Below, in pieces: positions 25,927 to 38,175 of a stretch of DNA of 54,588 nucleotides. Origin of the DNA: Gammaproteobacteria bacterium (lineage in GTDB: Bacteria; Pseudomonadota; Gammaproteobacteria; SZUA-152); assembly GCA_050116575.1 (NCBI GenBank), contig JASFOJ010000014.1:1-54588 (forward strand). Direction: 5' to 3'. How positions within the stretch are numbered: position 1 is the stretch's first letter; every line of letters starts with the position of its first letter. The translations under genes and the position numbers were made by a program. The notes beneath the pieces are model-generated. The model worked only from the letters and a program-made list of their open reading frames with translations. It ran no database searches and was not told the DNA's origin.

Positions 25927-27093
25927 TCAGCGATCGACCCATGCCAACCAACGACGCAACGGATTGGGTCGTCTGCGATGCACTGTGCCACGCCGGGCCA
26001 CCACATGGTAGGCTTGCAGCATGTCGGGAAAAGCCTCAGCCCCACCCCATAAATATAACTGATAGATACGGAACAACTTCTCGCCCCATCGGGCGACAAT
26101 CATATCCTTGTTTTCCTCCAGGCGTTCAGCCCAGAGATACATGGTGCGACTATAGTGCGCACTTTCGTTTTCCACCTCCAACACTTCCAGGCCTTGATAT
26201 AACAACTCCCTGATGAGATCCTGCAGACATAAATAGGTGTGCGTCCCGGGCCAGATATATTTGCGCGCAAACGGACTCACATCGAACTTTTCAACCGTGG
26301 CCGAGGCGTCCAGGTATAACAACCCCCCTGGCTTAAGGCACTTCCAAACTTGCTCACTGAACTTACGATAATTCATGATATGTTCGATCACGCCAAGAAT
26401 CACAATAGCATCGTAGGGTTCTTCTGGCGTATGCTGTAGAAAATCCTCTTTTATTACCTGGCACGGCAGATTCTGTTCCCGGATCATTTTGTTAATAAAC
26501 CACTGCGCATGGTCACGAATATCGAGAGCGGTTACGTGCACCCCACGACTCCCGCAATATTGTTCCACAGTACCCCATCCCGCACCGATATCGAGGAGAC
26601 GCATACCGGATTTCAGGTTGAGCTTATTGAACATATTTTCTACCTTGTGCTCCGTTCCCTCTTCAAGAGTTTCGTTTTTATGGTGGTAGATACCATGAGA
26701 ATAACAACGGTATTTCCTGTCTAAAAAGGACAAATAAAAATCGTCGTCATGATGATAGTGCCCCCCAACTGCCGTTCGATTAACAACTGTCTCAGGCTTC
26801 AGTAAGTCGAAAAGGAATTTTAACCAGACTCTAAAGGGAAGACGGCCACGAATAAGCCGCCGTAACTTCAGCACTTCGCGAATATCGCCTTCTATGTCGA
26901 TCTCGCCATTGATATACGCTTCGGCAAAACTCATTTCGTCGAGTGCCCGAGCAAGGATTCGGTTATCATGAAATTTAATGCGTACATACGGTGTATCGCC
27001 AAAATGATAACAGGTGCCGCCAGGCAATTCGATCTGACAGTTTACGCCGCTTCCATCAACGATACTTCTTATCCATTCGACAGTTGCAGACAT
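25927..27093 (-). CDS. Class I SAM-dependent methyltransferase of the cyclopropane-fatty-acyl-phospholipid synthase family
   Basis: LLDIGAGWG SAM-binding motif and LKPGGLLYLD; start taken at MSATVEWI, which is preceded by GAGGGAGA. Confidence 0.8.
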   Translation of the reverse strand: MSATVEWIRSIVDGSGVNCQIELPGGTCYHFGDTPYVRIKFHDNRILARALDEMSFAEAYINGEIDIEGDIREVLKLRRLIRGRLPFRVWLKFLFDLLKPETVVNRTAVGGHYHHDDDFYLSFLDRKYRCYSHGIYHHKNETLEEGTEHKVENMFNKLNLKSGMRLLDIGAGWGTVEQYCGSRGVHVTALDIRDHAQWFINKMIREQNLPCQVIKEDFLQHTPEEPYDAIVILGVIEHIMNYRKFSEQVWKCLKPGGLLYLDASATVEKFDVSPFARKYIWPGTHTYLCLQDLIRELLYQGLEVLEVENESAHYSRTMYLWAERLEENKDMIVARWGEKLFRIYQLYLWGGAEAFPDMLQAYHVVARRGTVHRRRPNPLRRWLAWVDR

Positions 27094-27654
27094 TGTTCTT
27101 GTCTCCCTCGTTATTTTTGCATTCATTCCGCCCCTGAAGGCCAACCACGAAATCCACGGAGGAAAGGGAGCCATCTAAGCGACAGTCTGGCTAGTAGATG
27201 ACGCGACAACGCCGGCAACACTAGCAGGGGGCGGAACTGTCATTTTATTTCAGCTGGGATTTTACTATTTTACCCAATCATTGGGAATCCTGCCACATTC
27301 GAGGGGCATCCCTCCCACCGGCAACTATGCACTGCGTATGGGCACGTCGAACAAGGAGACTATTTGATAACCTGCCATTCGAACAGCGCGAAATTAGCGG
27401 TTAACGGGTCTACCATTGAATTTTGGTGGTAACAGATGCTCCAGCAGTCAATAGCAGGGGTTTTTGACAAGGGTGTGTATATAAAAGATCAAGTCTGTAC
27501 TTTTACAATCTAATTTGGCTTCAATAATAGTAAGTACAGAATTGACCCTTCGCGCGAACCAAAAACGAAGGGGATGAGGCCATCGATTTTTCACCGGAAC
27601 AGTTAACCAAAAAATCCTTTATCGAAATACTTCAGGCGTCTGGCTAATACGTTA

Positions 27655-29094
27655 TTATCCCGCCGCAACATAAGCAGCGATGCGAAACCCTTCCTTACTG
27701 GCCCAGAGACGAATCACTTGCATCTCCGGCTTGGCGGCCAAGCGGTTGCGTAGGCCCCGCACCTGACGGATGGTTTTTGTACGCAAATGTAATTCGATGG
27801 TCAGGCGCTTTTCCAGTTCGTAACTTGTTTGTAAATCCATGGTCCAGATTGACGTATGACCTGCCAGACAAGAGTGGGCGTAGGTCGCCACACAATGCTG
27901 TAGCGTTCGTCCTTCGGCAATGAGCTCTTTACTGTTCAGTAATTCTCGAATCGTCCACACTTTCATATTTCGGCTTTGCGCTTTTCCTTCCACATAACGA
28001 AAGTCGGCGTACTTGGATTTCATCCATTGAGCGTGTCCACCGCGCGATTCTTTACCCAGACGGCGGTGCCAGGCATCGACCTGGCGCAGTAATGTGTCGG
28101 GTGTACGACCGCGCATCGAGAAGTTCGGCTGTAGCGGTGGATCTTCACGCGCGACCCCGCGATCGATAAATACAATTTGAGGTTCATATTTCTGGTGCCA
28201 AATATAGTCGATGATGGGTCCGTAATGTCGCGTATCGAGCAGTGGATTGTCCACAAAGAACCGCAGGACACTGAGCCAGAAGTCTTCATCGTTGAATTGT
28301 CGCGCCATGCGCGTTTCCGCCACGGCATCGGCCGCAGCCTTATTCCCTCCCAACGCATGGATTTGTGCCCACCGAAATGCCGCGTTCACTGAATAGTGCC
28401 CTGAGGCCTGTAAAAAATGATTGGCCATTTTTTTGGTCAGTGTTATGGGTAAATGCGGCGCGGTACGGATATTGTGACCCATCCCAATATGGATAAACCA
28501 TCCTTTGGCTTTGCCACTGCCATGCTGCCAGACTTTATCCATAAAGGCCGGCACCGGGTACTTGGCAAACAAATGCCTGGCCAGTGAAGCGAACTGTCGC
28601 TCAGCGTTGCGAGAGTGGGGTTGCCAGTCGGCAAAAGGCCGAATCCACTTACTATAATGAAACACAAAACTGATAATGCCTTTTACGTAGTCAACATGCG
28701 AAAGCAGCTTTGACTTTTCTTCCAACTGGCACAACACATCGCACAACAGGCGCCGATTTTGTGTTTTACGGAAACCATTGCCAATGGTATGCAATACGTC
28801 ACTTTGTAAACCTGCGTATCGAATTTCTTGCGAATAAAGTTTTTTGATATAAAACTGAAGGTTACTTTCACGCTTGTGACGCTTGAGCATCCGCATCGCA
28901 ACGTTTCGCGTGTATTGCTGGTACTCGCACTCAAGTTCCCGTTGGGTCTTGTTTAACCGTGTACTGAATCCCTGTTGCTCACACCATTGTTGATATGCTT
29001 CAATCGACGGCAAATGCAGGCGATGCGCAAACGCCAGGATCGTCTCGCGACGATCCTGTTTATAGGAGGCTGCATTTTTCTGTTTACGTGCCAT
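27655..29094 (-). CDS. Hypothetical 479-aa protein in the rtcB-arfB operon
   Basis: A large ORF immediately downstream of arfB on the same strand; no domain recognisable by eye. Confidence 0.6.
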   Translation of the reverse strand: MARKQKNAASYKQDRRETILAFAHRLHLPSIEAYQQWCEQQGFSTRLNKTQRELECEYQQYTRNVAMRMLKRHKRESNLQFYIKKLYSQEIRYAGLQSDVLHTIGNGFRKTQNRRLLCDVLCQLEEKSKLLSHVDYVKGIISFVFHYSKWIRPFADWQPHSRNAERQFASLARHLFAKYPVPAFMDKVWQHGSGKAKGWFIHIGMGHNIRTAPHLPITLTKKMANHFLQASGHYSVNAAFRWAQIHALGGNKAAADAVAETRMARQFNDEDFWLSVLRFFVDNPLLDTRHYGPIIDYIWHQKYEPQIVFIDRGVAREDPPLQPNFSMRGRTPDTLLRQVDAWHRRLGKESRGGHAQWMKSKYADFRYVEGKAQSRNMKVWTIRELLNSKELIAEGRTLQHCVATYAHSCLAGHTSIWTMDLQTSYELEKRLTIELHLRTKTIRQVRGLRNRLAAKPEMQVIRLWASKEGFRIAAYVAAG

Positions 29095-29130
29095 GCTGTT
29101 TTCCGACCTTTTCCCGGTGCTTTTTTCGCA

Positions 29131-29571
29131 TTACTCTTGACCGGGGTGTACTTTACGACGTTGCGCCTTACGTTCACTGTTCCGACGTTTTTGTTCCAGG
29201 CGGTCATTATTCTCCGCAAATGAACGTTTTCGTTTCAGCCGAGGCTTGCGGCGCTCTGCGGCTTTACAAATCAACTCGCACAGACGCTCGATCACTTCAC
29301 GCTTATTGCGTGCCTGTGACCGATGACGTCGTGCGGTAATAACAAGTTGGTAGTCGTTGTTGACCCGTGATCCGCCCAACTGAATCAAACGCTGTTGCAC
29401 GGTATACGGCAATGAGGGAGATTGAATAATATCAAAACGCAATTGGACAGCCGTCTGGTTCTTATTGACGTGCTGGCCACCCGGGCCGGATGCGGTCAGG
29501 GCCTTAAAGTTCAGCTCCTCATCGTCGATCACGATGGAATCGGTAACGTGTACGGGGTTTCCCATGTTCAT
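29131..29571 (-). CDS. arfB: Peptidyl-tRNA hydrolase ArfB (alternative ribosome rescue factor B)
   Basis: A GGQ motif (SGPGGQHVNKNQTAVQLRFDI) and a basic C-terminal tail; ~140-aa size typical of ArfB/YaeJ. Confidence 0.8.
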   Translation of the reverse strand: MNMGNPVHVTDSIVIDDEELNFKALTASGPGGQHVNKNQTAVQLRFDIIQSPSLPYTVQQRLIQLGGSRVNNDYQLVITARRHRSQARNKREVIERLCELICKAAERRKPRLKRKRSFAENNDRLEQKRRNSERKAQRRKVHPGQE

Positions 29572-29661
29572 GTCCTCGGTAAATTTTCATTGTTAACTCG
29601 GTTCTATATTCGAAATAGAGTGCATTCATCGCTGTTCTCCTTTTCTGTTTTGTTTCGTTAA

Positions 29662-30858
29662 TTAACCTTTGACACACACGATTTGTTTCAACGTGTGCAC
29701 CACGTCCACCAGATCGCTCTGGTTTTCCATGACCACATCGATATCCTTATAAGCGGCCGGTATTTCATCCACCACGGCGGTGTCCTTGCGGCATTCAATC
29801 CCTTGCGTTTGGGATTCCATGTCTTCGGCACTAAATTGCTTTCTCGCTTTGGTTCGGCTCATACGGCGGCCGGCGCCATGAGAGCAGGAACAAAACGACT
29901 GGGCATTGCCTTTACCGCGGACGATATAGGATTTCGCACCCATGCTACCGGGAATTATCCCTAACTCACCCTCTCCCGCTCGGATCGCCCCTTTACGGGT
30001 CACGAACACTTGGGCGTCAAAGTGATTCTCAATCGCCACGTAGTTGTGATGACAATTGATCGCTTCCTTGGTCACGCCAAAGTGGTTCAATTCCTTGCGC
30101 AGCATCTCAAAAATGAAGTGCATCATTTCCCGGCGGTTAACCATGGCATAGTCCTGCGCCCAGTGCACTGCATCAACGTAATCATCAAAATTCTGGGCGC
30201 CTTCCTCGAAATAGGCCAGGTCTTTGTCCGGCAAGTTCACGATATGCTGGCGCATATCTTTTTTCGCCAGATCGATAAAGTAACGACCGATGGCGTTCCC
30301 AATCCCACGGCTACCGGAATGCAACATCACCCACACATCCTGATTTTCGTCCAGACACAACTCGATGAAGTGGTTACCACCACCCAATGTCGCGATCTGG
30401 CGCACCCAGGTTTGATAGGGCTTCTTTTGTAAATTGGCAATCTTGGGGTGTTTGTCCAAAATCTTATCCAATCCCGGCGCCAGGCCACGAATAGTGGAAT
30501 TACGCGCCCTGTCGGTTTTATGCATGTCAAACCCCACGGGTATGGTTTTCTCGATCAGCGATCGAATACGGCGCAAGTTGTCCGGCAACTGCTCTGCCTT
30601 GATGGACAGGCGCACCGCGTTCATGCCGCAACCAATATCCACGCCCACCGCCGCAGGGATAACTACCCCTTTGGTAGGAATTACCGAGCCCACCGTGGCC
30701 CCAATGCCGGCATGCACGTCGGGCATCGCCGCGATATGGCTATGAATAAATGGCAATTGAGCAATGTTCGTCAATTGCTGCATGGCCTGGTGTTCCACAT
30801 CATCCGTATAAATTTTTACCGGCACCTTGCCTTTAGTAATGTTTCGTTTTATGGGCAT
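29662..30858 (-). CDS. rtcB: RNA-splicing ligase RtcB
   Basis: GNHFIELC...SCSHGAGR and metal-binding His/Cys motifs of RtcB; 398 aa. Confidence 0.93.
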   Translation of the reverse strand: MPIKRNITKGKVPVKIYTDDVEHQAMQQLTNIAQLPFIHSHIAAMPDVHAGIGATVGSVIPTKGVVIPAAVGVDIGCGMNAVRLSIKAEQLPDNLRRIRSLIEKTIPVGFDMHKTDRARNSTIRGLAPGLDKILDKHPKIANLQKKPYQTWVRQIATLGGGNHFIELCLDENQDVWVMLHSGSRGIGNAIGRYFIDLAKKDMRQHIVNLPDKDLAYFEEGAQNFDDYVDAVHWAQDYAMVNRREMMHFIFEMLRKELNHFGVTKEAINCHHNYVAIENHFDAQVFVTRKGAIRAGEGELGIIPGSMGAKSYIVRGKGNAQSFCSCSHGAGRRMSRTKARKQFSAEDMESQTQGIECRKDTAVVDEIPAAYKDIDVVMENQSDLVDVVHTLKQIVCVKG

Positions 30859-30896
30859 CGCCCTGTCCTCGTCAATCAGTTAATTATTGCAGGCAT

Positions 30897-30934
30897 AAAA
30901 AAACCCTGGATAACGCTGTCAGCCAGGGTTTATG
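30897..30934 (-). terminator. Rho-independent terminator (CCCTGG…CCAGGG hairpin, A-run / T-run on both sides) between rtcA and rtcB
   Basis: aaaaaaaCCCTGGataacgctgtcagCCAGGGtttatg, seen directly in the sequence. Confidence 0.5.
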
Positions 30935-31139
30935 AGACTCTACCATGGAAGACAACGTCGACATGCCTTCCACGCAAAGAGAAAGACATTGTTAATTTGT
31001 ATCGCGTTTTTGCCGTAACACTTGAGCTTTCTCCTTGAGTAACTGTTAAATTGAAATCGTGCCGCAATTGTAGCGCAGTGATTCAGAATGTCAACGACCG
31101 CTTGTCTGTTGAATTAGTACGCTCAAACCAGAGCAGTGT

Positions 31140-32174
31140 TTAACTTGCAACTTTTATACTAAAGCAATTTTCATTTAATTCGCTGAGCCGGTAATTGATA
31201 TCGAGAAACTGTTTCACCGTTCTGATATTGGTTTCAGTGTGTTGCGTTAGCTGACATGTCACAAACTCTCCGCCACCCGCCAAGCCCATGGGCAACAACA
31301 GCTGATCAGCGAGGTGCTCATCCACAGCAACGCCACTGTCAATGTAACGGCGTACTTCGTTTGCGACTTTTTTCGCAACGATTTCTGCTTTCACGCCTTT
31401 TTGACCATACCCTGTAAATACCTCGCTGATATTTTCACTTTCCACAGCAACTGAGACGACATTACCTGGCCCCAGCTCGGTTCCATAAGAGATAATGTCG
31501 AAATGATTGATCGATACGTTTAACTGACGCGCCAATACATTGATCTCGCGTTCAGCAATGTGTTTCGGTAATCCCACGATGTATACTGCTCCATGTATCG
31601 ACTGAATTTTCCCACGCTGCTTTAATGAGATAGCCTTTAATTTCCCGGTCGGTTGCACGTGCAACTCGAGACAACCACCGCCTTTTGGGAAAAATCCCGG
31701 CCGTATCAACGCTATTTCTATATCGCCCCCCATTTTATCCAGGATGGGTAAATACGCCTGTTGAATGAATTCAAATGGCGGGGCCATGGGATTGTGCGTG
31801 CCGCCTTCTATGGCGATCTTGCTGGGGCCATCGGCAAACAGCAAGGGCAGCATGATCGTCTGCAATACCAACGTTGTACTACCGGCGGTTCCGATCGAAA
31901 AGTGATACTCTCCAGGCTGTACATCATTCGGCTCGAAAACCAACTGTTGAGATCCCAAATGATCGCCTTCCACTCTGGCGTTACTGATACGCGCCGCTGC
32001 TCTAACCGCGGTTAAATGCCGGCGCAACAGCCCGGGCTTTTTCCGCCTGGCACGTATGTTTTCCATTCTGAATGGTTTTTTAAGGCAGACGGATATCGCT
32101 AATGATGAGCGCAATACCTGGCCACCCCCTTCGCCTTGTGAACCATCGATATAGACATGTCTTTGTTCGTTCAT
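31140..32174 (-). CDS. rtcA: RNA 3'-terminal phosphate cyclase RtcA
   Basis: N-terminal DGSQGEGGGQVLRSSLAISV... motif of RtcA; 344 aa. Confidence 0.9.
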   Translation of the reverse strand: MNEQRHVYIDGSQGEGGGQVLRSSLAISVCLKKPFRMENIRARRKKPGLLRRHLTAVRAAARISNARVEGDHLGSQQLVFEPNDVQPGEYHFSIGTAGSTTLVLQTIMLPLLFADGPSKIAIEGGTHNPMAPPFEFIQQAYLPILDKMGGDIEIALIRPGFFPKGGGCLELHVQPTGKLKAISLKQRGKIQSIHGAVYIVGLPKHIAEREINVLARQLNVSINHFDIISYGTELGPGNVVSVAVESENISEVFTGYGQKGVKAEIVAKKVANEVRRYIDSGVAVDEHLADQLLLPMGLAGGGEFVTCQLTQHTETNIRTVKQFLDINYRLSELNENCFSIKVAS

Positions 32175-32301
32175 TTCAATTTCTTTTGAATTTTCAGTAA
32201 GTAAATAGTCGCTTTCTACTGTTTAGCATAAATAGACGATATTTAAAAAGTCTCCCCCACTTCCCTTTCGTAAAGGGAAGCAATCGGGGAGAAACAATGG
32301 T

Positions 32302-33633
32302 TTAGTTAATTTTCACCAAACCATTCATCAGTCCTTCAAGGCCACCGAAAACAGACAAGTTACCGACTTTTTCAGTGACTTTTTCCAACGTTTCCAGCTC
32401 TTTCAAGCGTAGCGCCGTTGGGTTGTCTTCCATGACTTTGGCGGTGTTCAACATTGAACGTGTGGCCGCCGTTTCTTCGCGACGTCGAATGGAGTTCGCT
32501 TGTGCGGCTTTTTCAGCTTCGACCACTTGGGCCAGAATGGTTTTCATATCACCTGGCAGGATAATATCTTTCACACCTACATCAGCGATAGAAATACCGA
32601 CATCCGCGGTTTTGGCCTTGATGTGCGCCAACACGCTATCATCGATGACCGTTTTATCTTCAAGCAACGCATCCAACGTACGTGTACCCACGGCCGCGCG
32701 CAAACCAAATTGCAGTTCACGGCGCACGTAGTCGTTGACGTCAGCCAATTTTGACGTTGCCGCCATCACATCCGTGATGCGGTAGCTGCAAGACAAGTTG
32801 ATACGCAGGTTTACCTTGTCTTTGGTCAAAATTTCCTGACCGGCGACGTCCATGTCTTGTACACGAGTATCGAACAATTCAATACGGATATTACGATTGA
32901 ACTTCCAGTACGCGTGCAGACCTGGCGTCAATGTACCTGCCGTTGCACCATCCACGTACAGAACACCTACGTTGTATTCTGGCACATGACGGAAGTACAC
33001 GGCGTGGATCATGGAGTCACGCAACAGACCACGGTCGGCGAACACCAGTTCGGCTGCCAGCCGTGATTCGATGGCGAAGTCATCCGCGATATCGATTACT
33101 TTGGCCTCAACGTCCACCAGTCCTTTCCAGAACAGCGTGCGCGTTGATGGACCCAGCACGTAGGCCAGGCGGCGATTTTTGAAGATCAATGCCACTTGCG
33201 TTGCGTTCAATTCCACGATATCGAAGCGTTTTGCCACTTCGCCCGCAAATTGTTTGATCAACAGGTCGGTCAAGCGGTGCTCGAACTCCGGTACGCTCAG
33301 GTCAAAAACCTCCACGTCGATTTTACGCAGTGGATCCAGGAAGTGGTACGTACCCGCATCCAGGAAGCGTACAAAATCCCCGTTTTTAAACAGCAATCCG
33401 CGTTCATTTTTTTTCACTATAAATTTACGTACTACCAACATTGTCTTACTCCCATTGTCCCTGTTACCACTCACTGGTTGTTTCACGTTCACCGCCTTGT
33501 CAGCGCCTGAAATGCCCTTATTTGTTAAACTTGAGTTCACACGCACAGAAGCCGGTTTGCCTCGATGCCGCTGTGAAATAAGGGCGGCCGTTTCTCCGAT
33601 TGTGCGTTGTGTGTTCATCGTAGAGTCCTTCAC
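32302..33633 (-). CDS. SPFH/band-7 (stomatin/HflKC-like) domain protein
   Basis: SPFH core and a C-terminal coiled coil (EAEKAAQANSIRRREE...); the N-terminal start is uncertain. Confidence 0.75.
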   Translation of the reverse strand: MKDSTMNTQRTIGETAALISQRHRGKPASVRVNSSLTNKGISGADKAVNVKQPVSGNRDNGSKTMLVVRKFIVKKNERGLLFKNGDFVRFLDAGTYHFLDPLRKIDVEVFDLSVPEFEHRLTDLLIKQFAGEVAKRFDIVELNATQVALIFKNRRLAYVLGPSTRTLFWKGLVDVEAKVIDIADDFAIESRLAAELVFADRGLLRDSMIHAVYFRHVPEYNVGVLYVDGATAGTLTPGLHAYWKFNRNIRIELFDTRVQDMDVAGQEILTKDKVNLRINLSCSYRITDVMAATSKLADVNDYVRRELQFGLRAAVGTRTLDALLEDKTVIDDSVLAHIKAKTADVGISIADVGVKDIILPGDMKTILAQVVEAEKAAQANSIRRREETAATRSMLNTAKVMEDNPTALRLKELETLEKVTEKVGNLSVFGGLEGLMNGLVKIN

Positions 33634-34002
33634 GTTTTATATATCATACAATCTAGTTAGTGGTGTCACTTCCACACCATTGCAGCGGGTGATAATTTGC
33701 GAATCACCGGGTTTGATCGGAACGTGACGCCGCAGTATCCCGTAACCCGAATAACTTCAAGCTACTGTCAACGTTAGCGAAACGTTGCGAAAAAACCGGG
33801 TAAATCCGTACCCGTTATCACACAGGCCCAATGGTGCTGTGTGAGCAACAGCGGTTCGGCATCAACTGCCTGCCTATTTCGCTACTGTCACACCGGAAGT
33901 GACATCCGGTGGTTTGGTTTCCTCTCGTACTCCCAAGGTGTCTTTACCTAAGACCAAAGAGGGGACTCGAACCCCAGACCGTTAAAGGGTCTTTACCATA
34001 GT

Positions 34003-34075
34003 TGCTTAGACAGGATTTGAACCTGCTACCTCACGATTTTCCGTCGTGTGCTCTACCCAATGAGCTACAAAGCAC
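34003..34075 (-). pseudogene. tRNA-Phe-like gene (anticodon GAA but G33, acceptor-stem mismatch, no CCA)
   Basis: Cloverleaf derivable by eye: D-arm GCTCATTGGGTAGAGC, anticodon arm CACGA-CGGAAAA-TCGTG, T-arm GCAGGTTCAAATCCTGT. The defects suggest decay. Confidence 0.35.
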
Positions 34076-34342
34076 TGGTGTGAATAGCCTTCTCCATAAC
34101 GGTACACGTCAATCAATTTTCAGATCCAACGCGCCAGCCAGGTATACAGAACCATCGCCGCTGTTACAAGTAAGACGCATACTCACTCTGTAAAGGGTTT
34201 GTGTTTTTCTTTACACAATCCACTTAATTTCTTTAATGCTCCCTCCTTTTCAACCGAGGGTTGGGGGGGGTTATTACATTAATCCTAGAATCAAATCCCC
34301 CTTCATTCTCCATTTGTAAAACGGGAAGTACCTCACCATTAA

Positions 34343-34906
34343 TCAAATCCAACGACAGTGTTTCGTAAATCCGGCTTTCAAAAATTCCATTTGATCGGCC
34401 AGGATTCTGCCGCTGTTGCGCAATGCCAGATATTCGGCATGGTTCGGTGTATGCGGCAACGCCAACAACTGCAAATTGCATTCTTCCGGCAAACGATCGC
34501 CTTTGTAATGGTTGCATCGTTTGCAGGCTGCCACGACGTTGGTCCAGGTGTTTTTACCGTTCCGTGACCGTGGAATCACGTGATCACGGGTCAGCTGCTG
34601 AGCGTTAAACTCACGACCACAATACATACACAGATGTCGGTCACGTCGAAACAATTCCTGGTTGGTCAACGGTGGTACTGAGCGAACACGAATGGTTTTA
34701 TCCACGCCTTTCACTGCAACGATCGAATGGATATCCACAAACGAGCGTTGGCTGGTCACACGGTTGACACCACCGTGGAACCGAAAACGATGTTCGCCCG
34801 CCGTCCAACCGATACGCTCTTTGGCATACAACATCACGGCGTCTTGCCAATGCATCCAGCCCAACGGCTGACCCGCCATATCCAAACGCAAAATCAATGG
34901 AACCAC
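34343..34906 (-). CDS. HNH endonuclease (start GTG preceded by GAGGAG; ORF-track extension to 35050 runs into tRNA-Leu and is rejected)
   Basis: C-terminal CMYCGREFNAQQLTRDHVIPRSRNGKNTWTNVVAACKRCNHYKG HNH motif. Confidence 0.75.
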   Translation of the reverse strand: MVPLILRLDMAGQPLGWMHWQDAVMLYAKERIGWTAGEHRFRFHGGVNRVTSQRSFVDIHSIVAVKGVDKTIRVRSVPPLTNQELFRRDRHLCMYCGREFNAQQLTRDHVIPRSRNGKNTWTNVVAACKRCNHYKGDRLPEECNLQLLALPHTPNHAEYLALRNSGRILADQMEFLKAGFTKHCRWI

Positions 34907-34964
34907 GCTTTTCTCCTCATACTCTATCGATACCTTTAACAAGTTGGGAAGTACCATTATTAAT

Positions 34965-35050
34965 TGGTGTGCCCGGTCAGATTCGAACTGACATTGCCAT
35001 TTGGGCATAGGGTTTGAGCCTATTGTGTCGGCCAATTGCACCACGGGCAC
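34965..35050 (-). tRNA. tRNA-Leu(CAA)
   Basis: Acceptor GTGCCCG/CGGGCAC, anticodon arm ATAGG-CTCAAAC-CCTAT, long variable arm, T-arm with TTCGAAT, encoded CCA. Confidence 0.85.
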
Positions 35051-35248
35051 ATTTTGCGAATTGGCGGAAGAGATAGGGCGAGCAACGGGTTAAGGAGTCG
35101 CGAGCGCCAAGTCATGGATGACTTGGCTGGACTTTCGCGCGAAGCATGGATAGCGAAGCGCGAAAGCGAACCTATAAATCCCTACCAGGGATCCACTGGT
35201 TAGCAACCAGCTGCCTTGCCATTCAGCCACTCTTCCGACTTATCGATT

Positions 35249-35336
35249 TGGTGCGTGCGGAGGGATTGGAACCCTCATGCTCGAACGGAGCGGCGGATTT
35301 TAAATCCGCTGTGTTTGGCGGCTCCACCACGCACGC
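35249..35336 (-). tRNA. tRNA-Leu(UAA), D-loop lacks GG
   Basis: Acceptor GCGTGCG/CGCACGC, anticodon arm GCGGA-TTTAAAA-TCCGC, long variable arm, CCA end. Confidence 0.8.
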
Positions 35337-35356
35337 AGCACCTACATTTATGTATT

Positions 35357-35432
35357 TGGTTGTGACAATTGGAGTCGAACCAATATCTTCAAGGGTATGA
35401 GCCTTGCGCTTTGCCAGTTAAGCTATGTCACA
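35357..35432 (-). tRNA. tRNA-Met or Ile2 (anticodon CAU)
   Basis: Canonical cloverleaf; anticodon arm CAAGG-CTCATAC-CCTTG. Confidence 0.85.
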
Positions 35433-35445
35433 ACTTCTACAACAT

Positions 35446-35521
35446 TGGCACCCTTGGTAGGATTTAAACCCACATCTGTCGAGGTAGAAGCTCGATGCTT
35501 TGTTCATTAAGCTACAAGGGT
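35446..35521 (-). tRNA. tRNA-Arg(UCU)
   Basis: Anticodon arm TCGAG-CTTCTAC-CTCGA; canonical D and T arms. Confidence 0.85.
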
Positions 35522-35539
35522 GTAGTTAATCAATGTATT

Positions 35540-35615
35540 TGGTGCCCCCGGCAGGATTTTCGCCTGCAACCTACCGCTTAAAAGGCGATTGCTCTTGATG
35601 TTGAGCTACGAAGGC
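35540..35615 (-). tRNA. tRNA-Lys(UUU) with atypical T-loop CGAAAAT
   Basis: Anticodon arm ATCGC-CTTTTAA-GCGGT; acceptor with two G-U pairs; the T-loop lacks TTC. Confidence 0.75.
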
Positions 35616-35642
35616 AATATTTCTATTTTTAAAAGAATAAAT

Positions 35643-35717
35643 TGGAGGTGCGGGCCGGAATTGCACCGACGAAAAGTTGGTTTGCAACCAACTGCATTGC
35701 TACTCTGCCACCGCACC
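35643..35717 (-). tRNA. tRNA-Cys(GCA)
   Basis: Anticodon arm GTTGG-TTGCAAA-CCAAC, discriminator U, CCA. Confidence 0.8.
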
Positions 35718-35718
35718 G

Positions 35719-35865
35719 TGGCACCTCGAGCAGGAGTCGACAATTTTGTATGGAGCAAAATTGGTCGAACTTTAGTTCACCCGTAGGGCGCAAGCCATGG
35801 ACGGCTTGCGACAGCCCACACCCACTGTTTTGGAGGCAGTTGTTCTACCGTTAAACTATCGAGGC
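35719..35865 (-). ncRNA. Elongated tRNA-Trp(CCA)-like gene carrying the ~80-nt three-hairpin module (copy A) between 5' T-stem and T-loop
   Basis: The 5' half GCCTCGA-TA-GTTT-AACGGTA-GAAC-A-ACTGC-CTCCAAA-ACAGT closely parallels E. coli tRNA-Trp. It is followed by GTGGG, the module, GTCGACT-CCTGC, TCGAGGT-G-CCA. Confidence 0.55.
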
Positions 35866-35877
35866 ACAATCTTTTAT

Positions 35878-35952
35878 TGGTAGGGGATCCTGGACTTGAA
35901 CCAGAACTCTGAGCTTCAAAGACTCGTGTGCTGCCGATTACACCAATCCCCT
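35878..35952 (-). tRNA. tRNA-Gln(UUG)
   Basis: Anticodon loop CTTTGAA; acceptor AGGGGAT/ATCCCCT; CCA. Confidence 0.75.
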
Positions 35953-35967
35953 ATCGGTTATTAAACT

Positions 35968-36043
35968 TGGCACGCCCACCAGGACTTGAACCTGGATCTC
36001 TCACATTCGTAGTGTGAGGCTCTCGCCATTGAGCTATAGGCGT
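35968..36043 (-). tRNA. tRNA-Arg(ACG)
   Basis: Anticodon arm TCACA-CTACGAA-TGTGA; canonical. Confidence 0.85.
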
Positions 36044-36045
36044 TT

Positions 36046-36120
36046 TGGTTGACGTGGTCAGAATCGAACTGACAACCTTCTGTTTGTAAGACAGACGCTC
36101 AACCATTGAGCTACACGCCA
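36046..36120 (-). tRNA. tRNA-Val(UAC)
   Basis: Anticodon arm TCTGT-CTTACAA-ACAGA; canonical. Confidence 0.85.
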
Positions 36121-36138
36121 TTTGATTTGTATAAAACG

Positions 36139-36232
36139 TGGCGGAAGGTGGAGGGCACGATCCCCAAACGGTGTTTCACGTTCCACTGGTTTTCAAGACC
36201 AGGCCAACGCCCATCGCGTCAGGTTACCTTCC
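36139..36232 (-). tRNA. tRNA-Ser(UGA)-like, class II, degenerate T-arm
   Basis: Acceptor GGAAGGT/ACCTTCC, anticodon arm CTGGT-CTTGAAA-ACCAG, long variable arm; the T-loop is not canonical. Confidence 0.55.
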
Positions 36233-36301
36233 TTACCTGTTTTACATACGTTCGCAATATAGAATTGTTTTGTGATGTTGTTTGTTGCAGTCTTTTAGAT
36301 T

Positions 36302-36358
36302 ACGATTGACGACGCACTTTCACCAAAGCTGCTAGTTGTTTTTTGGATAATTTCATTG
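36302..36358 (-). CDS. Candidate 18-aa ORF MKLSKKQLAALVKVRRQS with strong SD (GAGGAGGG) inside the tRNA array
   Basis: RBS and ATG spacing seen in the sequence; no other support. Confidence 0.2.
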
Positions 36359-36375
36359 CATCGCCCTCCTCTATT

Positions 36376-36451
36376 TGGCACGCCCGGAAGGATTCAAACC
36401 TTCGACCCCTTGGTTCGAAGCCAAGTACTCTGTTCACTGAGCTACGGACGT
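36376..36451 (-). tRNA. tRNA-Arg(UCG)
   Basis: Anticodon arm CTTGG-CTTCGAA-CCAAG; canonical arms. Confidence 0.75.
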
Positions 36452-36465
36452 ATGTGGCATTAAAT

Positions 36466-36542
36466 TGGTAGCGCGGGTGAGATTCGAACTCACAACATCC
36501 AGTTTCTAAGACTGGCGCGTCTGCCCATTGCGCCACCGCGCC
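36466..36542 (-). tRNA. Class I tRNA with anticodon UAG (Leu codon CUA) but short variable arm
   Basis: Anticodon arm CCAGT-CTTAGAA-ACTGG, 5-nt variable loop, A73; bacterial tRNA-Leu is normally class II. Confidence 0.6.
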
Positions 36543-36561
36543 GCTATACGACAAATAAGTA

Positions 36562-36639
36562 TGGGGCGACCGACGAGGTTCGAACTCGTATCCTCTCGGT
36601 TCACAGCCGAGGACTTTAGCCGGTTAAGCTACGGCCGCC
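36562..36639 (-). tRNA. tRNA-His(GUG) with encoded G-1
   Basis: Extra 5' G pairing with C73; anticodon arm CTCGG-CTGTGAA-CCGAG. Confidence 0.85.
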
Positions 36640-36661
36640 ACTAATTAACTTACAAATAATT

Positions 36662-36754
36662 TGGAGCGGGTAATGAGACTTGCACTCATAACCTCAACGT
36701 TGGCAACGTTACGCTCTTCTCATTGCACCCTCCGGGCATAAAAGCTATACCCGC
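36662..36754 (-). tRNA. tRNA-Gly(GCC) with ~18-nt D-loop expansion (UUAUGCCCGGAGGGUGCAAU)
   Basis: Acceptor GCGGGTA/TACCCGC with U73; anticodon arm TAACG-TTGCCAA-CGTTG. Closely parallels E. coli tRNA-Gly(GCC) apart from the insertion and the TGCAAGT T-loop. Confidence 0.6.
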
Positions 36755-36761
36755 AGTAAAT

Positions 36762-36856
36762 TGGTCTGGACGACAGGCCGCTCTTGAGCATCCCTGCTCT
36801 GGCGGCACTTGTGCATCCAAGCACATCGGATTCGAACACGATCCATACAGTTTTGT
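36762..36856 (-). pseudogene. tRNA-Pro 3'-end relic (duplicate of the last ~20 nt of tRNA-Pro, T-arm missing)
   Basis: aattggtctggacgacagg nearly repeats aatttggtctgggcgacagg at 36858; the upstream part lacks T-arm and anticodon features. Confidence 0.4.
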
Positions 36857-36860
36857 AATT

Positions 36861-36939
36861 TGGTCTGGGCGACAGGATTTGAACCTATGGCCTCTCGGTT
36901 CCAAACCGAGTGCTCTGCACAGACTGAGCTACACCCAGA
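36861..36939 (-). tRNA. tRNA-Pro(UGG)
   Basis: Anticodon arm CTCGG-TTTGGAA-CCGAG; canonical. Confidence 0.85.
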
Positions 36940-37049
36940 AAGATCACCAACGATGCACGTTGGCGGCACAGCTGTTGTCCTGCAGTTGTGCTCCCACACC
37001 TTTTACGGCGGTGGTATACCGGCGACAGGGAGTGTCGCGCTCCTGCTAT

Positions 37050-37197
37050 TGGTTGCCCTATCAGATTCGACAATTCTGACGGGATCAGAATTGGCCGCGC
37101 TTTAGCGCGCCCGGCAGGGTACGGGCCATGGATGGCCCGTAACAGCTGATCACCGCACGATTATCAGTCGTGTGCTCTGCCACTGAGCTAAAGGGCA
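37050..37197 (-). ncRNA. Elongated tRNA-Ile(GAU)-like gene carrying module copy C
   Basis: The 5' half TGCCCTT-TA-GCTC-AGTGGCA-GAGC-A-CACGA-CTGATAA-TCGTG is canonical. T-stem ATCAG then the module then TTGTCGAAT-CTGAT then AGGGCA-A-CCA. Confidence 0.5.
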
Positions 37198-37365
37198 TTG
37201 GCGAACCGGACGGGGTTATTCCGCACATCCATGTGCTCCACCCTTTGGGCCGTCGCTTCGCGACGTTCAAATTTGCTCCCGGCAAATTTGTCGAACCCGC
37301 AATGTCATCTCGACACCAGGTTGAAGGCCTGGCCGCTTTGTCCACTTTGCATACCGGTTCATCGT

Positions 37366-37442
37366 TGGCGACCATGACCGGCAATGATCCGGCATCTTCC
37401 ACCTTGACAGGGTGGCGCTTTCCCAAGTTAAGCTACATGGCC
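37366..37442 (-). tRNA. tRNA-Asp(GUC) with atypical T-loop
   Basis: Anticodon arm CCACC-CTGTCAA-GGTGG; acceptor GGCCATG/CATGGTC; T-loop ATCATTG. Confidence 0.7.
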
Positions 37443-37449
37443 TTTAAAT

Positions 37450-37521
37450 TGGTGGAGTGATTCGGAATCGAACCGAACCCGATCGCTTGCAAGGCGTTCA
37501 GTGCGACCCATCGCCCACCCC
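37450..37521 (-). ncRNA. Short tRNA-like gene (anticodon UGC-like) with mini D-arm (GCGA-TGG-TCGC)
   Basis: Acceptor GGGGTGG/TCACTCC with G-U pairs, T-arm TTCGG-TTCGATT-CCGAA, CCA; the D-loop is only 3 nt. Confidence 0.4.
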
Positions 37522-37543
37522 GTATGAAACAAGTGCAATTAGT

Positions 37544-37629
37544 TGGCTGAGAAGGTCGGACTCGAACCGACATTGAGTTCTCACTCACGGGTTAACAGCC
37601 CGCTGCATTACCTGGTCTGCCACTTCTCA
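37544..37629 (-). tRNA. Class II (long variable arm) tRNA with anticodon GUU (Asn codons)
   Basis: Acceptor TGAGAAG/CTTCTCA, D-stem GCA/TGC, anticodon arm GCGGG-CTGTTAA-CCCGT, 15-nt variable arm GAGTGAGAACTCAAT, T-arm GTCGG-TTCGAGT-CCGAC. Confidence 0.6.
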
Positions 37630-37637
37630 TTATCATT

Positions 37638-37714: not shown

Positions 37715-37720
37715 GAAATT

Positions 37721-37982: not shown

Positions 37983-37994
37983 AATACGCTTTTG

Positions 37995-38160: not shown

Positions 38161-38175
38161 GCACTAAAAAACAAT

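Follow-up and report, generated by a model that had tools for sequence, protein, structure and literature searches.

An RNA-repair system built from a Band-7 protein, a b7a-tRNA and RtcB was predicted by Burroughs & Aravind (2016), as summarised in bioRxiv 10.1101/312249. Translation stress induces the L-arrays of Anabaena, which have an adjacent HNH gene and rtcB in the neighbourhood (PMC8421152), and the TrcR regulon of Anabaena is made up of the trn array, HNH, rtcB and a slipin/SPFH gene (PMC10272220). RtcB2-PrfH is a ribosome rescue-and-repair module (bioRxiv 10.1101/2021.09.22.461353; PMC9223846). ArfB is explicitly described as a housekeeping factor that is not coupled to RtcB (PMC6514570).

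The window, the whole 54,588-nt stretch analysed here, contains a ~12.6-kb island (27655-40284) whose distal part is a cluster of rtcA, rtcB, arfB and a PcfJ-domain gene. A divergent XRE-type regulator gene, a leader, a boxA element, a 20-gene tRNA array and an HNH endonuclease gene come first; a tRNA-like gene, an SPFH/Band-7 gene, rtcA, a second leader, rtcB, an upstream ORF (uORF), arfB and the PcfJ gene follow. The genes are:

39691-40284, plus strand: XRE-family HTH protein, 197 aa, divergent from the tRNA array (Pfam HTH_31/HTH_3, aa 14-73)
34965-38754, minus strand: long one-strand array of 20 tRNA genes with at least 13 amino-acid specificities
34343-35050, minus strand: HNH endonuclease (Pfam HNH_5, 66 bits)
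34001-34074, minus strand: single tRNA-like gene, 368 nt upstream of the SPFH gene (ARAGORN: tRNA-Phe(GAA))
32302-33633, minus strand: SPFH/Band-7 protein, 443 aa (Pfam Band_7, 107 bits, aa 217-387)
31140-32174, minus strand: RtcA, RNA 3'-phosphate cyclase (Pfam RTC, 273 bits, plus RTC_insert)
29662-30858, minus strand: RtcB RNA ligase (3'-phosphate/5'-OH; Pfam RtcB, 442 bits)
29519-29629, minus strand: uORF of 36 codons between rtcB and arfB, with a strong Shine-Dalgarno sequence (SD) and a 47-nt out-of-frame overlap with the arfB start
29131-29571, minus strand: ArfB, 146 aa, an RF-1-domain GGQ peptidyl-tRNA hydrolase and ribosome-rescue factor
27655-29094, minus strand: 479-aa PcfJ-domain protein, the domain itself confined to aa 379-456 (48.6 bits, cutoff 25)

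The initial annotation had correctly placed the terminator and the four genes of the cluster, all on the minus strand.

The island is low in GC and horizontally acquired, and it resides in a gammaproteobacterial MAG. GC content is 0.44-0.53 over 22-44 kb versus 0.55-0.59 in parts of the flanks, and the surrounding FeoB, iPGM, helicase and flotillin genes mark the window as chromosomal. Large phages such as Caulobacter phiCbK and Acinetobacter and Bordetella phages have tRNA clusters with RtcB, which the window RtcB matches at 59-65% identity, and large phages also carry PcfJ-like proteins; unlike these, the window is chromosomal, lacks phage structural genes and has no nucleotide match in the phage collection. 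This set of modules is found again in ~15 gammaproteobacterial MAG loci, with the order of units shuffled between islands. A survey of 98 loci (tblastn and ARAGORN; L numbers below) found PcfJ adjoining RtcB in 15 distinct gammaproteobacterial loci, in two gene orders, and most of these also have SPFH, HNH, 7-25 tRNAs and the 197-aa regulator; all relatives are MAG or metagenome contigs. By its gene content, the island appears to be the union of two described, largely untested kinds, Band-7/b7a-tRNA/RtcB repair and HGT-spread L-arrays, with RtcA, ArfB and the PcfJ-domain protein as apparent additions by this lineage.

Likeness to the Band-7 system is evident from the SPFH gene and its companion. 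SPFH homologues occur in at least 12 island loci, and a Band-7 protein, a tRNA-like gene just upstream and RtcB occur together in 12. In all 12 loci the tRNA-like gene precedes SPFH by 249-433 nt; its D and T arms are kept while the anticodon varies (gaa, cat in four, gat in three, att, tat, gag and tta). The gene at 34001-34074 matches the "b7a-tRNA" and appears to be the system's tRNA-like cofactor RNA, with the SPFH/Band-7 protein as candidate scaffold of the repair system. Unlike the Band-7 system as summarised, the island joins these parts to the 20-gene tRNA array and HNH, and adds RtcA, ArfB, PcfJ, a shared leader and the XRE regulator.

The upstream same-strand SPFH gene, tRNA-like gene, HNH gene and tRNA array were absent from the initial annotation. 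ARAGORN recognises 17 of the array tRNAs, and three are matched by Rfam only (35543-35615, 37133-37197 and 38692-38754). Because the listed HNH ORF overlaps tRNA-Leu at 34965-35050, translation probably begins further downstream and yields ~190 aa, the size seen in relatives: in L001, L005, L008, L094 and L096 the array is followed by homologues of 184-193 aa. Like L-arrays, the island has a long same-strand array, an adjacent HNH, rtcB nearby, a patchy distribution suggesting HGT and a default state that is presumably silent. Its parts list (array, HNH, rtcB, slipin/SPFH) equals that of the TrcR regulon. In Anabaena, however, the genes are dispersed and an RHH repressor acts via DNA repeats over the -10 box, whereas in the island they are physically linked, with an XRE-HTH protein as candidate repressor, and what the units share is a hairpin and terminator at the RNA level. 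The XRE protein has weak DicA/RstR-like repressor matches and is conserved divergently from the array in at least six loci, with homologues of 50-62% identity in this position in L001, L005, L008, L015 and L017. It is a candidate island repressor and functional stand-in for RtcR/TrcR.

RtcB, ArfB and PcfJ form a tightly spaced unit of identical order in the window, L001, L012 and L013, which bears out the earlier pairing of RtcB with ArfB and an unknown partner. L014 carries the ArfB-PcfJ part on a contig that stops before rtcB, and ArfB also adjoins RtcB in L096. In the same four loci the uORF keeps its place and frame offset, is 36-37 codons long and overlaps arfB by 44-47 nt. For arfB, the ATG at 29565, and not 29571, is probably the conserved start. 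ArfB has a GPGGQ motif and a basic C-terminal tail and passes the NCBIfam ArfB equivalog NF006718 (136.9 bits, cutoff 100); PrfH was rejected as an identity for this RF-1-domain protein (34.7 bits against a cutoff of 166.65). As in RtcB2-PrfH, an RtcB ligase is encoded beside a release-factor-family GGQ peptidyl-tRNA hydrolase. Unlike PrfH, the island hydrolase is an ArfB, which has no codon-recognition domain and whose tail probes the empty mRNA channel, and the ligase lies outside the RtcB2 subfamily (TIGR03073: 145 bits, cutoff 272). RtcA does not count as a conserved member: it occupies the island position only in the window, L094 and L096, and among PcfJ-bearing loci it is confined to the window, the position being vacant in L012 and filled by rbfA in L001.

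The 479-aa protein, suggested earlier for testing as PcfJ-like, does contain a PcfJ domain in the profile search. It has a helical N-terminal domain (1-303), an alpha/beta C-terminal domain that looks GNAT-like, and conserved His/Cys/Glu residues; three structure searches point to a GNAT-like fold. RtcB homologues of 72-91% identity adjoin PcfJ in 14 other distinct loci. True RtcB2-PrfH pairs are also accompanied by PcfJ-domain proteins: an SF0329-PcfJ fusion adjoins RtcB2-PrfH in L050, and another adjoins an RF-1 protein of PrfH size in L098, one locus being a deltaproteobacterial (Syntrophorhabdus) MAG and the other an unclassified metagenome contig. These fusions lend independent support to the RtcB-PrfH analogy drawn in the initial annotation. 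On gene neighbourhood, PcfJ is linked to RtcB in Gammaproteobacteria and independently to RtcB2-PrfH. PcfJ is not obligatorily tied to repair, because ~60 close homologues in Poribacteria/Planctomycetota are solo, with RtcB absent within 10 kb. This observation would also suit a passenger gene at the island edge, for example one derived from a mobile element or phage, with no role in repair or rescue, as would the abundance of PcfJ domains in large phages and plasmids and a megaphage homologue with no RtcB or tRNA within 12 kb. The 15 adjacencies in two gene orders and the separate RtcB2-PrfH associations make such a passenger decidedly improbable, as do the arfB-pcfJ gap of only 36 nt, which has no terminator, and solo copies in L003, L018 and L022 that still bear the island leader module. 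No well-known unrelated function combined with separate transcription came to light for this protein.

The spacer between rtcA and rtcB and the region ahead of the array contain similarly organised leaders:

31067-31094, minus strand: near-consensus sigma-70 promoter of the rtcB leader, TTGACA-16-TACAAT (11/12 match)
30992-31021, minus strand: leader ORF1, 9 codons, strong SD AGGAGAAAG, stop 20 nt before the hairpin
30943-30974, minus strand: hairpin P1, built on an invariant GGAAGG/CCUUCC core, with a CU-rich tract before it and covariation at flanking pairs
30897-30932, minus strand: intrinsic terminator (AAACCCUGG...CCAGGGUUUUUUU), from folding, then a conserved AUGCC
39593-39644, minus strand: array promoter TTGAAA-16-TATACT (39620-39593; promoter scan, 10/12 match) and a region with repeats
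39012-39194, minus strand: 60-codon leader ORF of the tRNA array, stop 20 nt before the hairpin
38892-38994, minus strand: hairpin (GGAAGG/CCUUCC) and terminator copy at the array head (model R1, 60.8 bits, E 5e-9)
38855-38867, minus strand: boxA-like element TGTTCTTTAACAA of the rrn antitermination type, after the terminator and before the first tRNA

The window has a single exact TTGACA-N16-TACAAT, where 0.03 would be expected. Given this promoter at 31094-31067, the transcribed leader is ~164 nt (~31060-30897); it carries two micro-ORFs. Aligned between loci, the spacer is identical in 80% of columns, where RtcA itself reaches only 70-84% identity. The window, L094 and L096 share without change the promoter hexamers, the SD, the length of ORF1, the hairpin, the terminator and the SD of rtcB, and ORF1 keeps its length, frame and position despite GTG/ATG start and TAA/TAG stop changes. 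The terminator has a 9+4-bp stem (30932-30902) followed by T7 (30903-30897), with stem and U-tract unchanged in L094 and L096; its end is separated from the rtcB SD by 26 nt and from the ATG by 38 nt, roughly as in the earlier estimate of ~35 nt to the ribosome-binding site. Because this terminator is conserved and is followed by rtcB with no promoter in between, the gene should depend on read-through, as had been proposed. The leader is not universal ahead of rtcB: in L012 SPFH is followed by a plain terminator only, and in L001 another promoter and leader precede rbfA-rtcB.

The stretch 30935-31139 had been taken as non-coding and perhaps a Y-RNA-like small RNA. It does include a hairpin-bearing leader RNA, but it also holds a promoter and micro-ORFs; it matches no Rfam family at E<0.5, including Y_RNA and YrlA, and its fold has neither a closing 5'/3' stem nor a tRNA-like domain. 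No Ro/TROVE gene was found. The Y-RNA part of the first model, an autonomous RtcB-PrfH-like rtcA-rtcB-arfB-X operon that had lost RtcR and used the spacer RNA as RtcB cofactor, is thereby largely refuted. Conservation of RtcB-ArfB-PcfJ and the PcfJ link to RtcB2-PrfH accord with this model, as does the absence of RtcR: neither RtcR nor Sigma54_activat is matched among window ORFs of at least 500 aa or scanned island ORFs, in agreement with the initial annotation. The model nevertheless seems very improbable as a whole: the gene at 34001-34074 provides the system's tRNA-like RNA, relatives can do without rtcA, and the cluster is one unit of a larger conserved island with its own XRE-HTH candidate regulator. 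Because the cluster is not autonomous, the first interpretation was only partly right, holding for the RtcB-ArfB-PcfJ unit, read-through, the PrfH analogy and the lack of rtcR, and failing for the Y RNA, autonomy and rtcA membership. The E. coli rtcBA/RtcR and Salmonella rsr-yrlBA-rtcBA operons likewise combine RtcA and RtcB, and a stress-inducible logic is expected in both cases; the island differs in lacking RtcR, sigma-54 control, Ro and Y RNA and in its order of rtcA then rtcB, which do not form one simple operon because a promoter and a terminator separate them.

The hairpin-terminator module recurs across islands. A covariance model, R1, matches the rtcA-rtcB spacer (30889-30974, 68.9 bits, E 1e-10) and at E<1e-4 detects 17 copies, spread over 13 island loci, two of the 17 from outside its seed; on ~65 Poribacteria/Planctomycetota control loci (~1.3 Mb) it finds nothing below E=0.09. 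Without exception, the copies stand at the 5' end of a transcription unit. An ORF ends 14-23 nt upstream of the hairpin (mode 20-21) in 16 of 17 copies, the other (L070) having been mis-anchored by the script. In the R1 alignment (A6), 90% of cells are paired against 58-60% with partners slid, counts that are inflated by fitting of the alignment to the model; the terminator helix (helix 2) is paired in 94-96% across copies. Compensatory changes occur, for example, at pair 3/33 (CG5/UA5) and pair 10/26 (CG7/UA6). This leader of short ORF, hairpin and terminator is common to island transcription units and previously undescribed.

Could the copies be ordinary unregulated terminators or insulators, alike by descent or by MITE/REP-like spread, with control exerted at promoters by XRE or other proteins? 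Terminators after SPFH in L012 and L001 do act as plain gene ends, an operator-like palindrome accompanies the array promoter beside the XRE gene, and leaders could simply travel with genes as units are shuffled. The copies, however, generally stand between a promoter with a short ORF and downstream genes, not at 3' ends, and a terminator between the sole promoter and 20 tRNA genes is sensible only if it can be overcome. Moreover, compensatory changes round an invariant core and the fixed stop-codon spacing argue for selection on RNA function, not a drifting repeat. This explanation is accordingly quite unlikely.

A stand-alone transcript is an unlikely explanation too, though somewhat less so. 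The spacer element and its copies would form the 3' part of an sRNA (~164 nt) or of small-protein mRNAs acting in trans or through their products, with rtcB and the array expressed only by unregulated terminator leak. The unit is complete, with a near-consensus promoter, structured RNA and strong terminator. Array-head ORFs resemble a real small protein in their conserved 60-codon length and C-terminus: L005, L022 and L096 (which ends TMT) have ORFs of exactly 60 codons in the same position, most ending ..(G/D/N)M(T/S/R), and the longer ORF listed for L008 has a C-terminus of the same kind. MFE folding of 15 copies also reveals no conserved mutually exclusive antiterminator, the hairpin and terminator being stable in all. 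Against this, leader ORFs vary in length from 9 codons to more than 80 and are unrelated in sequence, and it is the position of the stop relative to the hairpin that is conserved; the module always lies directly upstream of genes without their own promoter; and the conserved TGCC just beyond the U-tract matters only in read-through RNA.

We read the leader as a conditional, attenuator-type terminator, because the promoter scan detects no promoter-like site from the terminators to rtcB or the first tRNA. Like leader-peptide attenuators (trp, his, pheA; tna), it has a promoter, an SD-bearing short ORF, structured RNA and a terminator before the genes, with the stop codon at a fixed position relative to structure. 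It differs in that no alternative antiterminator or obvious runs of regulatory codons were found, the ORF ends before the first hairpin and not inside it, and the module also serves a non-coding tRNA operon. Since no conserved antiterminator was found and the terminators could simply be leaky, the regulatory switch is hypothetical.

On comparative evidence, the cluster is probably the distal operon of an acquired "translation-damage" island, kept silent by conditional attenuator-type leaders until translation is disturbed. Ribotoxins or other insults would cut tRNAs or rRNA and jam ribosomes. Expression would proceed without RtcR, with the divergent XRE-type protein at the island head as candidate repressor. 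One leader type (promoter, short ORF with its stop ~20 nt before the hairpin, CU-rich tract directly after the stop, GGAAGG/CCUUCC hairpin, strong terminator) heads the tRNA array, the rtcB operon and, in relatives, SPFH or pcfJ units, and a ribosome on the leader ORF is the likely sensor. The array would supply replacement tRNAs; RtcA would regenerate 2',3'-cyclic phosphate ends; and RtcB would reseal broken RNAs, SPFH and the b7a-tRNA serving it as scaffold or cofactor. ArfB would hydrolyse peptidyl-tRNA on ribosomes stalled with an empty A site, and the PcfJ protein may carry out an accessory step on the same substrates.

Two further elements at the array head are shared with relatives. Upstream of the array promoter lies a CAAG-N3-CTTG / CTTGAAA repeat region, a putative operator; by inspection, this promoter block is kept in the window, L001 (a perfect palindrome, TTACAAGTTTCTTGTAA) and L005. 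A weaker second module copy lies at 39271-39375 (R1, E 0.05). The E. coli rrn boxA consensus is TGCTCTTTAACAA; the window element matches it at 12 of 13 bases, the L005 element is identical to it, and L001 has AGCTCTTTAACAA.

The chemistry of bacterial RtcB is well defined, but its physiological substrates and its regulation outside the RtcR paradigm are poorly so. In the window, rtcB belongs to a minus-strand cluster whose genes, rtcA, rtcB, arfB and a gene for a 479-aa protein, are present as the initial annotation had placed them, with Pfam or NCBIfam matches:

31140-32174, minus strand: RtcA (Pfam RTC, 273 bits, and RTC_insert)
29662-30858, minus strand: RtcB (Pfam RtcB, 442 bits)
29519-29629, minus strand: 36-codon uORF in the rtcB-arfB spacer, with a strong Shine-Dalgarno (SD) sequence, AGGAGA
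29131-29571, minus strand: 146-aa RF-1-domain protein, ArfB (NCBIfam NF006718)
27655-29094, minus strand: 479-aa protein (PcfJ, PF14284, 48.6 bits against a cutoff of 25, aa 379-456; its sole Pfam match)

The RF-1-domain protein scores above the cutoff of the ArfB equivalog NF006718 (136.9 bits against 100, aa 6-142), has the expected length of about 140 aa, carries a GPGGQ motif and a basic C-terminal tail (RRKPRLKRKRS...RKAQRRK), and lacks a codon-recognition domain, features that identify it by sequence as a true ArfB. Identity as PrfH fails (TIGR03072, 34.7 bits against a cutoff of 166.65), as does assignment of the window RtcB to the release factor-associated RtcB2 subfamily (TIGR03073, 145.3 bits against 271.8). 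Because the gaps between rtcB and arfB (90 nt) and between arfB and pcfJ (36 nt) contain no terminator, the three genes are likely to form a single operon, as first proposed. The uORF runs across the SD and start of arfB in another frame, overlapping arfB by 47 nt, and could act as a gate on ArfB translation. The relative loci L001, L012 and L013 keep its position, its length (36-37 codons) and its overlap with arfB (44-47 nt).

No RtcR or Sigma54_activat domain was found in any ORF of at least 500 aa or in any island ORF scanned, in agreement with the earlier statement that rtcR is not adjacent. The accompanying ideas of an autonomous cluster and a missing regulator have to be given up, since the genes are embedded in a larger conserved island that also encodes a candidate regulator, an XRE-type HTH protein:

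39691-40284, plus strand: XRE-type HTH protein, 197 aa, beyond the array and divergent from it
34965-38754, minus strand: tRNA array, 20 genes in 3.8 kb (17 by ARAGORN, 3 by Rfam only)
34343-35050, minus strand: HNH endonuclease (HNH_5, 66 bits)
34001-34074, minus strand: isolated tRNA-like gene (b7a-tRNA), 368 nt upstream of SPFH
32302-33633, minus strand: SPFH/Band-7 protein (Band_7, 107 bits), 1.4 kb upstream of rtcB

Homologues of the 479-aa protein (824 matches, about 476-479 aa long) were traced to their contigs, a further survey covered one genome per GTDB species, and every locus was scored by tblastn and ARAGORN; the support is comparative throughout and comes from MAGs. PcfJ lies beside RtcB (72-91% identical) in 15 distinct gammaproteobacterial loci (the window, L001, L005, L008, L012, L013, L015-L020, L022, L070 and L086). 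Most of these also hold SPFH, HNH, 7-25 tRNAs and the 197-aa regulator, and relatives likewise have the HNH gene beside the array. Gene order in the subclade of the window is SPFH-(RtcA or RbfA or nothing)-RtcB-uORF-ArfB-PcfJ, and in the remaining loci SPFH-PcfJ-(x)-RtcB. Two loci added through relatives of RtcA, L094 and L096, read array-HNH-tRNA-SPFH-DUF6717-RtcA-RtcB, continued in L096 by 326aa-ArfB-ClpX-like. About 60 PcfJ homologues from Poribacteria and Planctomycetota are solo genes, and a metagenome scan with PcfJ returned only 2 loci, both already in the set.

Beside RtcB, L096 (12621-13601) and L005 (11466-12416) each encode a protein of 316-326 aa without a Pfam match (43% identity between the two); it takes the place of PcfJ in one of the two islands and is another partner candidate. 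Some lineages combine the island with the classical regulator, because at L001 1-1531 RtcR and the RlaP nucleotidyltransferase adjoin the same island type.

Both features tested for the SPFH/Band-7, b7a-tRNA and RtcB system, a Band-7 gene near RtcB and a tRNA-like gene by Band-7, are present in the window. SPFH co-occurs with RtcB in at least 12 loci, and an equivalent of the b7a-tRNA lies 249-433 nt from the SPFH start in 12 of 12. The D and T arms of this RNA are kept while its anticodon varies freely (gaa, cat four times, gat three times, att, tat, gag and tta), even to a stop anticodon, UUA, at L086 3487-3560, which argues that the b7a-tRNA is not used in decoding. This variation bears on the proposed role of the b7a-tRNA as a tRNA-like cofactor or decoy.

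L-arrays are long, spread by HGT, and have an adjacent HNH gene and rtcB in their neighborhood; those of Anabaena stay off unless translation is impaired (Santamaria-Gomez et al. 2021, PMC8421152). Compared by layout, the window array is likewise closely spaced, on one strand and much longer than accretive arrays, with an HNH homing-endonuclease gene beside it. Its first well-scored member (38272-38366, minus strand) is a tRNA-Ile(UAU) of 94-95 nt whose long extra arm is atypical of Ile tRNAs, and the first tRNA of the L001 array (2950-3043) is of the same kind. Both L-arrays and the Band-7/b7a-tRNA system are known mainly from bioinformatics, and the island joins them physically. The regulon of the Anabaena TrcR repressor comprises a trn array, an HNH gene, rtcB and a slipin/SPFH gene (PMC10272220). 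These parts are dispersed over the Anabaena genome, whereas in the window they are physically linked; because the parts lists are equal, the window may be viewed as holding a linked version of this regulon, extended by RtcA, ArfB and PcfJ.

The E. coli-type operon differs. There, RtcR is adjacent to and divergent from rtcBA, whereas none was found in the scanned window ORFs, and RtcB and RtcA are co-transcribed, whereas in the window rtcA comes before rtcB and the two are separated by a promoter and a strong terminator. PrfH and RtcB form a repair-coupled rescue pair, and ArfB is treated as a housekeeping factor (PMC6514570). Unlike the RtcB2-PrfH module, the window has ArfB rather than PrfH and an RtcB outside the RtcB2 subfamily, and ArfB next to RtcB is fixed in six loci. 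Because the same source names PrfH, not ArfB, as the repair partner, this linkage is a variant; it ties a housekeeping-type rescue factor to RNA repair, a role that the literature has kept for PrfH. The island as a whole is a new variant of known, mostly only predicted, systems, and its leader module is the newest testable element.

The PF14284 match bears out PcfJ, one of the folds put forward at the outset for testing in the 479-aa protein. In an AlphaFold2 model from 53 homologues (mean pLDDT 89), a helical N-terminal domain (residues 1-303) is joined to a C-terminal domain of alpha/beta type. No solved homologue emerged when PDB sequences were searched by profile, and Foldseek against the PDB gave no significant match (best E 0.12), its list consisting of GNAT and MYST acetyltransferases, L/F-transferase and FemX. 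In a viral fold library, large-phage PcfJ-like proteins come first and N-acetyltransferases next. Invariant residues include H400, C401, Y405, C409, Q444, R446, G447, N450 and R451, and E434 is nearly invariant. The hallmark of GNAT enzymes is a core fold with an acyl-CoA pyrophosphate-binding loop, Q/R-x-x-G-x-G/A. In the model, the last strand (441-446) and the long helix that closes the fold (455-468) flank Q444-R451, which is the place where GNAT enzymes bind the pyrophosphate of CoA. That PcfJ may be a GNAT-like enzyme is a lead from the model, not a finding.

The L050 locus, from a Syntrophorhabdus MAG, encodes a 613-aa SF0329-PcfJ fusion and, after it, RtcB2 (TIGR03073, 422.8 bits) and PrfH (TIGR03072, 250.9 bits) at 2024-5713, and at L098 99-2525 a 211-aa, PrfH-sized RF-1 protein lies directly ahead of a 591-aa fusion of the same kind (SF0329 is PF25753; the fusions span 591-613 aa). 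By gene neighborhood, PcfJ is thus linked independently to the canonical RtcB2-PrfH pair, and the analogy with RtcB-PrfH drawn initially holds. SF0329-PcfJ was not found named as a third partner of the colicin-E3 resistance module in the literature examined. These linkages nominate, as a partner for RtcB and for release-factor-like hydrolases, a widespread, functionless domain that large phages and conjugative plasmids often carry. The gene context of a megaphage PcfJ homologue is uninformative.

The spacer between rtcA and rtcB contains a leader with the layout of an attenuator, namely a promoter, then a short ORF preceded by its SD, then an intrinsic terminator, all ahead of the genes:

31094-31067, minus strand: promoter TTGACA-N16-TACAAT, an 11/12 match
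about 31060 to 30897, minus strand: predicted leader transcript, 164 nt, with three hairpins
30903-30897, minus strand: U7 tract following the terminator stem AAACCCUGGCUGAC...GUUAUCCAGGGUU

The exact promoter pattern occurs once in the window against 0.03 expected, and the predicted transcript folds with z = -2.4. Spacers of the window, L094 (RtcA 84% identical) and L096 (RtcA 70%) align with 80% column identity. Both promoter hexamers, the SD AGGAGAAAG, the core of a GGAAGG/CCUUCC hairpin, the terminator stem with its U-tract, and the rtcB SD are invariant. The 9-codon ORF1 keeps its length and frame across changes of start from GTG to ATG and of stop from TAA to TAG. A further reading frame, ORF2 (30989-30930, through the hairpin), was rejected as a sensor: none of the three rtcB leaders interrupts it, which by our own estimate is not significant in 3 sequences, and its stop does not keep a fixed distance from the terminator.

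The clean intrinsic terminator described before rtcB is real, and no promoter-like site was found between it and rtcB, so that the proposed dependence of rtcB on read-through also holds. The Y-RNA-like small RNA suggested for the same spacer does not: Rfam gave only tRNA matches at the gathering threshold in the window, a search of 30800-31200 relaxed to E 10 brought up no relevant family, and no Ro/TROVE gene was matched among the island ORFs scanned, which rules out a Y RNA or other known RNA family. The first interpretation thus stands for the operon, read-through and the PrfH analogy and falls for the Y RNA, autonomy and the missing regulator.

The hairpin and terminator recur as a module. 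A spacer profile searched with nhmmer matched further sites in the islands, and a regular-expression scan and a covariance model, R1, built on 15 copies, brought up more. At E<1e-4, R1 detects 17 copies, spread over 13 island loci and 2 of them outside the seed, and nothing below E=0.09 in about 65 Poribacteria and Planctomycetota loci (about 1.3 Mb). Every copy marks the 5' end of a unit:

window 38892-38994 (minus strand), L001, L005, L008, L070 and L096: R1 copies at the head of the tRNA array
window 30889-30974 (minus strand), L094 and L096: R1 copies before rtcB
L003 (a 'solo' pcfJ), L018 and L022: R1 copies before pcfJ
L015 and L017: R1 copies before SPFH

Pairing holds in 90% of the cells of the seed alignment, compared with 58-60% once partners are slid, and compensatory changes surround an invariant core (pair 3/33, CG5/UA5/UG3; 10/26, CG7/UA6; 75/105, CG8/UA4). 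The model-fitted alignment of 24 matches has double-sided changes at 14 of 19 pairs, a figure biased towards the model. An ORF stops 14-23 nt before GGAAGG in 16 of the 17 copies, with a mode of 20-21; the L070 copy is mis-anchored and unreadable. These ORFs run to 9-10 codons in the leaders of rtcB and of L003 and to about 60 at array heads, exactly 60 in four of the array-head type (window, L096, L005 and L022). The C-terminus is M(T/S/R), mostly after G, D or N, in the window, L096, L005, L022, L008 and L086, and an extra stop codon in another frame often lies a few nucleotides before the ORF stop. After this stop comes a CU-rich tract (CUUUYC) complementary to GGAAGG, to a purine tract 3' of the hairpin and, in rtcB leaders, to the ORF1 SD.

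The bases right after the U-tract (A/G-U-G-C-C; window 30891-30896, minus strand) are kept in all copies and are complementary to the G-run of the terminator 3' arm (CCAGG/CCUGG, CGGGG/CCCCG). By inspection, this arm and TGCC(C) form 3-5 G:C pairs in most copies, with shifts of register and mostly one-sided changes. Given their position, these bases would be relevant only in read-through RNA.

The array head has elements of its own:

39620-39593, minus strand: promoter-like site TTGAAA-16-TATACT, the only one at the array head, upstream of the leader ORF and terminators
38867-38855, minus strand: boxA-like TGTTCTTTAACAA, 3' of the leader terminator and before the first tRNA

An rrn-type boxA, TGCTCTTTAACAA, is matched at 12-13 of 13 bases in the window (38855-38867, minus strand), L001 (about 2807-2819) and L005 (about 2898-2910), which suggests that the array transcript, long and untranslated, is subject to Nus-factor antitermination. 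Ahead of the main array leader, 39271-39585 (minus strand) holds an ORF of about 64 codons and then a weak module copy (E 0.05, hairpin arms in reversed order), and the array may therefore stand behind two tandem terminators.

Since the only promoters lie upstream of strong terminators, downstream expression would require read-through. A classical attenuator with a mutually exclusive antiterminator was rejected, because no conserved alternative was seen by eye, comparing the hairpin 3' arm with the terminator arms, or in 15 folds. By MFE, hairpin and terminator stay in 15 of 15 copies whether or not the 15 nt after the stop are blocked, and a local alternative involving the CU tract is the sole other structure. 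The fixed distance between stop codon and hairpin suggests that a ribosome terminating or paused at the leader-ORF stop, and covering the CU tract, would be part of the switch. The leader terminator could also be overcome by a protein antiterminator, or read-through could be set by kinetic effects. Another possibility is that the terminators are simply leaky and that the XRE protein, encoded divergently from the array, exerts control at the promoters. No operator common to the array promoter and the rtcB-leader promoter was seen.

If the leader-ORF ribosome is part of the switch, it would couple the island to the state of translation. For the L-arrays and rtcB of Anabaena such coupling is experimental, whereas for the island we infer it. 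The one indication that the window array would be silent by default is the terminators between its single promoter and the array. For learning how a cell that lacks RtcR detects that its translation machinery is damaged, the leader has the advantage of being compact (about 90-165 nt).

A reading that joins these elements is speculative, and we consider it rather doubtful as a whole. The leader module would be a new cis-regulatory class that reads the state of the translation apparatus from whether a ribosome occupies the leader stop and switches on a complete, mobile 'translation emergency kit' of spare tRNAs, b7a-tRNA/SPFH/RtcA/RtcB repair and ArfB rescue. For PcfJ, the same reading proposes a new GNAT-like enzyme whose target would be tRNA, either damaged or acylated, or the stalled ribosome, and which would work alongside RtcB and a GGQ hydrolase, ArfB in the window and PrfH in other loci.

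A phage origin, which the tRNA array and RtcB might suggest, was ruled out, as no record in the phage collection matched the window by nucleotide similarity, flanking genes are cellular (FeoB, iPGM, PIF1-type helicase, M48 peptidase and flotillin), and the contig was deposited as a gammaproteobacterial MAG; on this evidence the window is identified as chromosomal. Between 22 and 44 kb the GC content is 0.44-0.53, whereas parts of the flanks have 0.55-0.59. A SAM methyltransferase of the CMAS family whose N-terminus is DUF7884 (25927-27174, minus strand), 480 nt downstream of pcfJ, probably lies outside the island because it is not kept beside pcfJ in relatives. On the other side, an interrupted tRNA-like gene without a counterpart in other loci adjoins the RtcB island (40617-40732, plus strand; Rfam tRNA, 57 bits). 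ARAGORN in intron mode reads it as tRNA-Arg(tct) with a 40-nt insert in the anticodon loop, at position 34/35, which is below the size of a group I intron.
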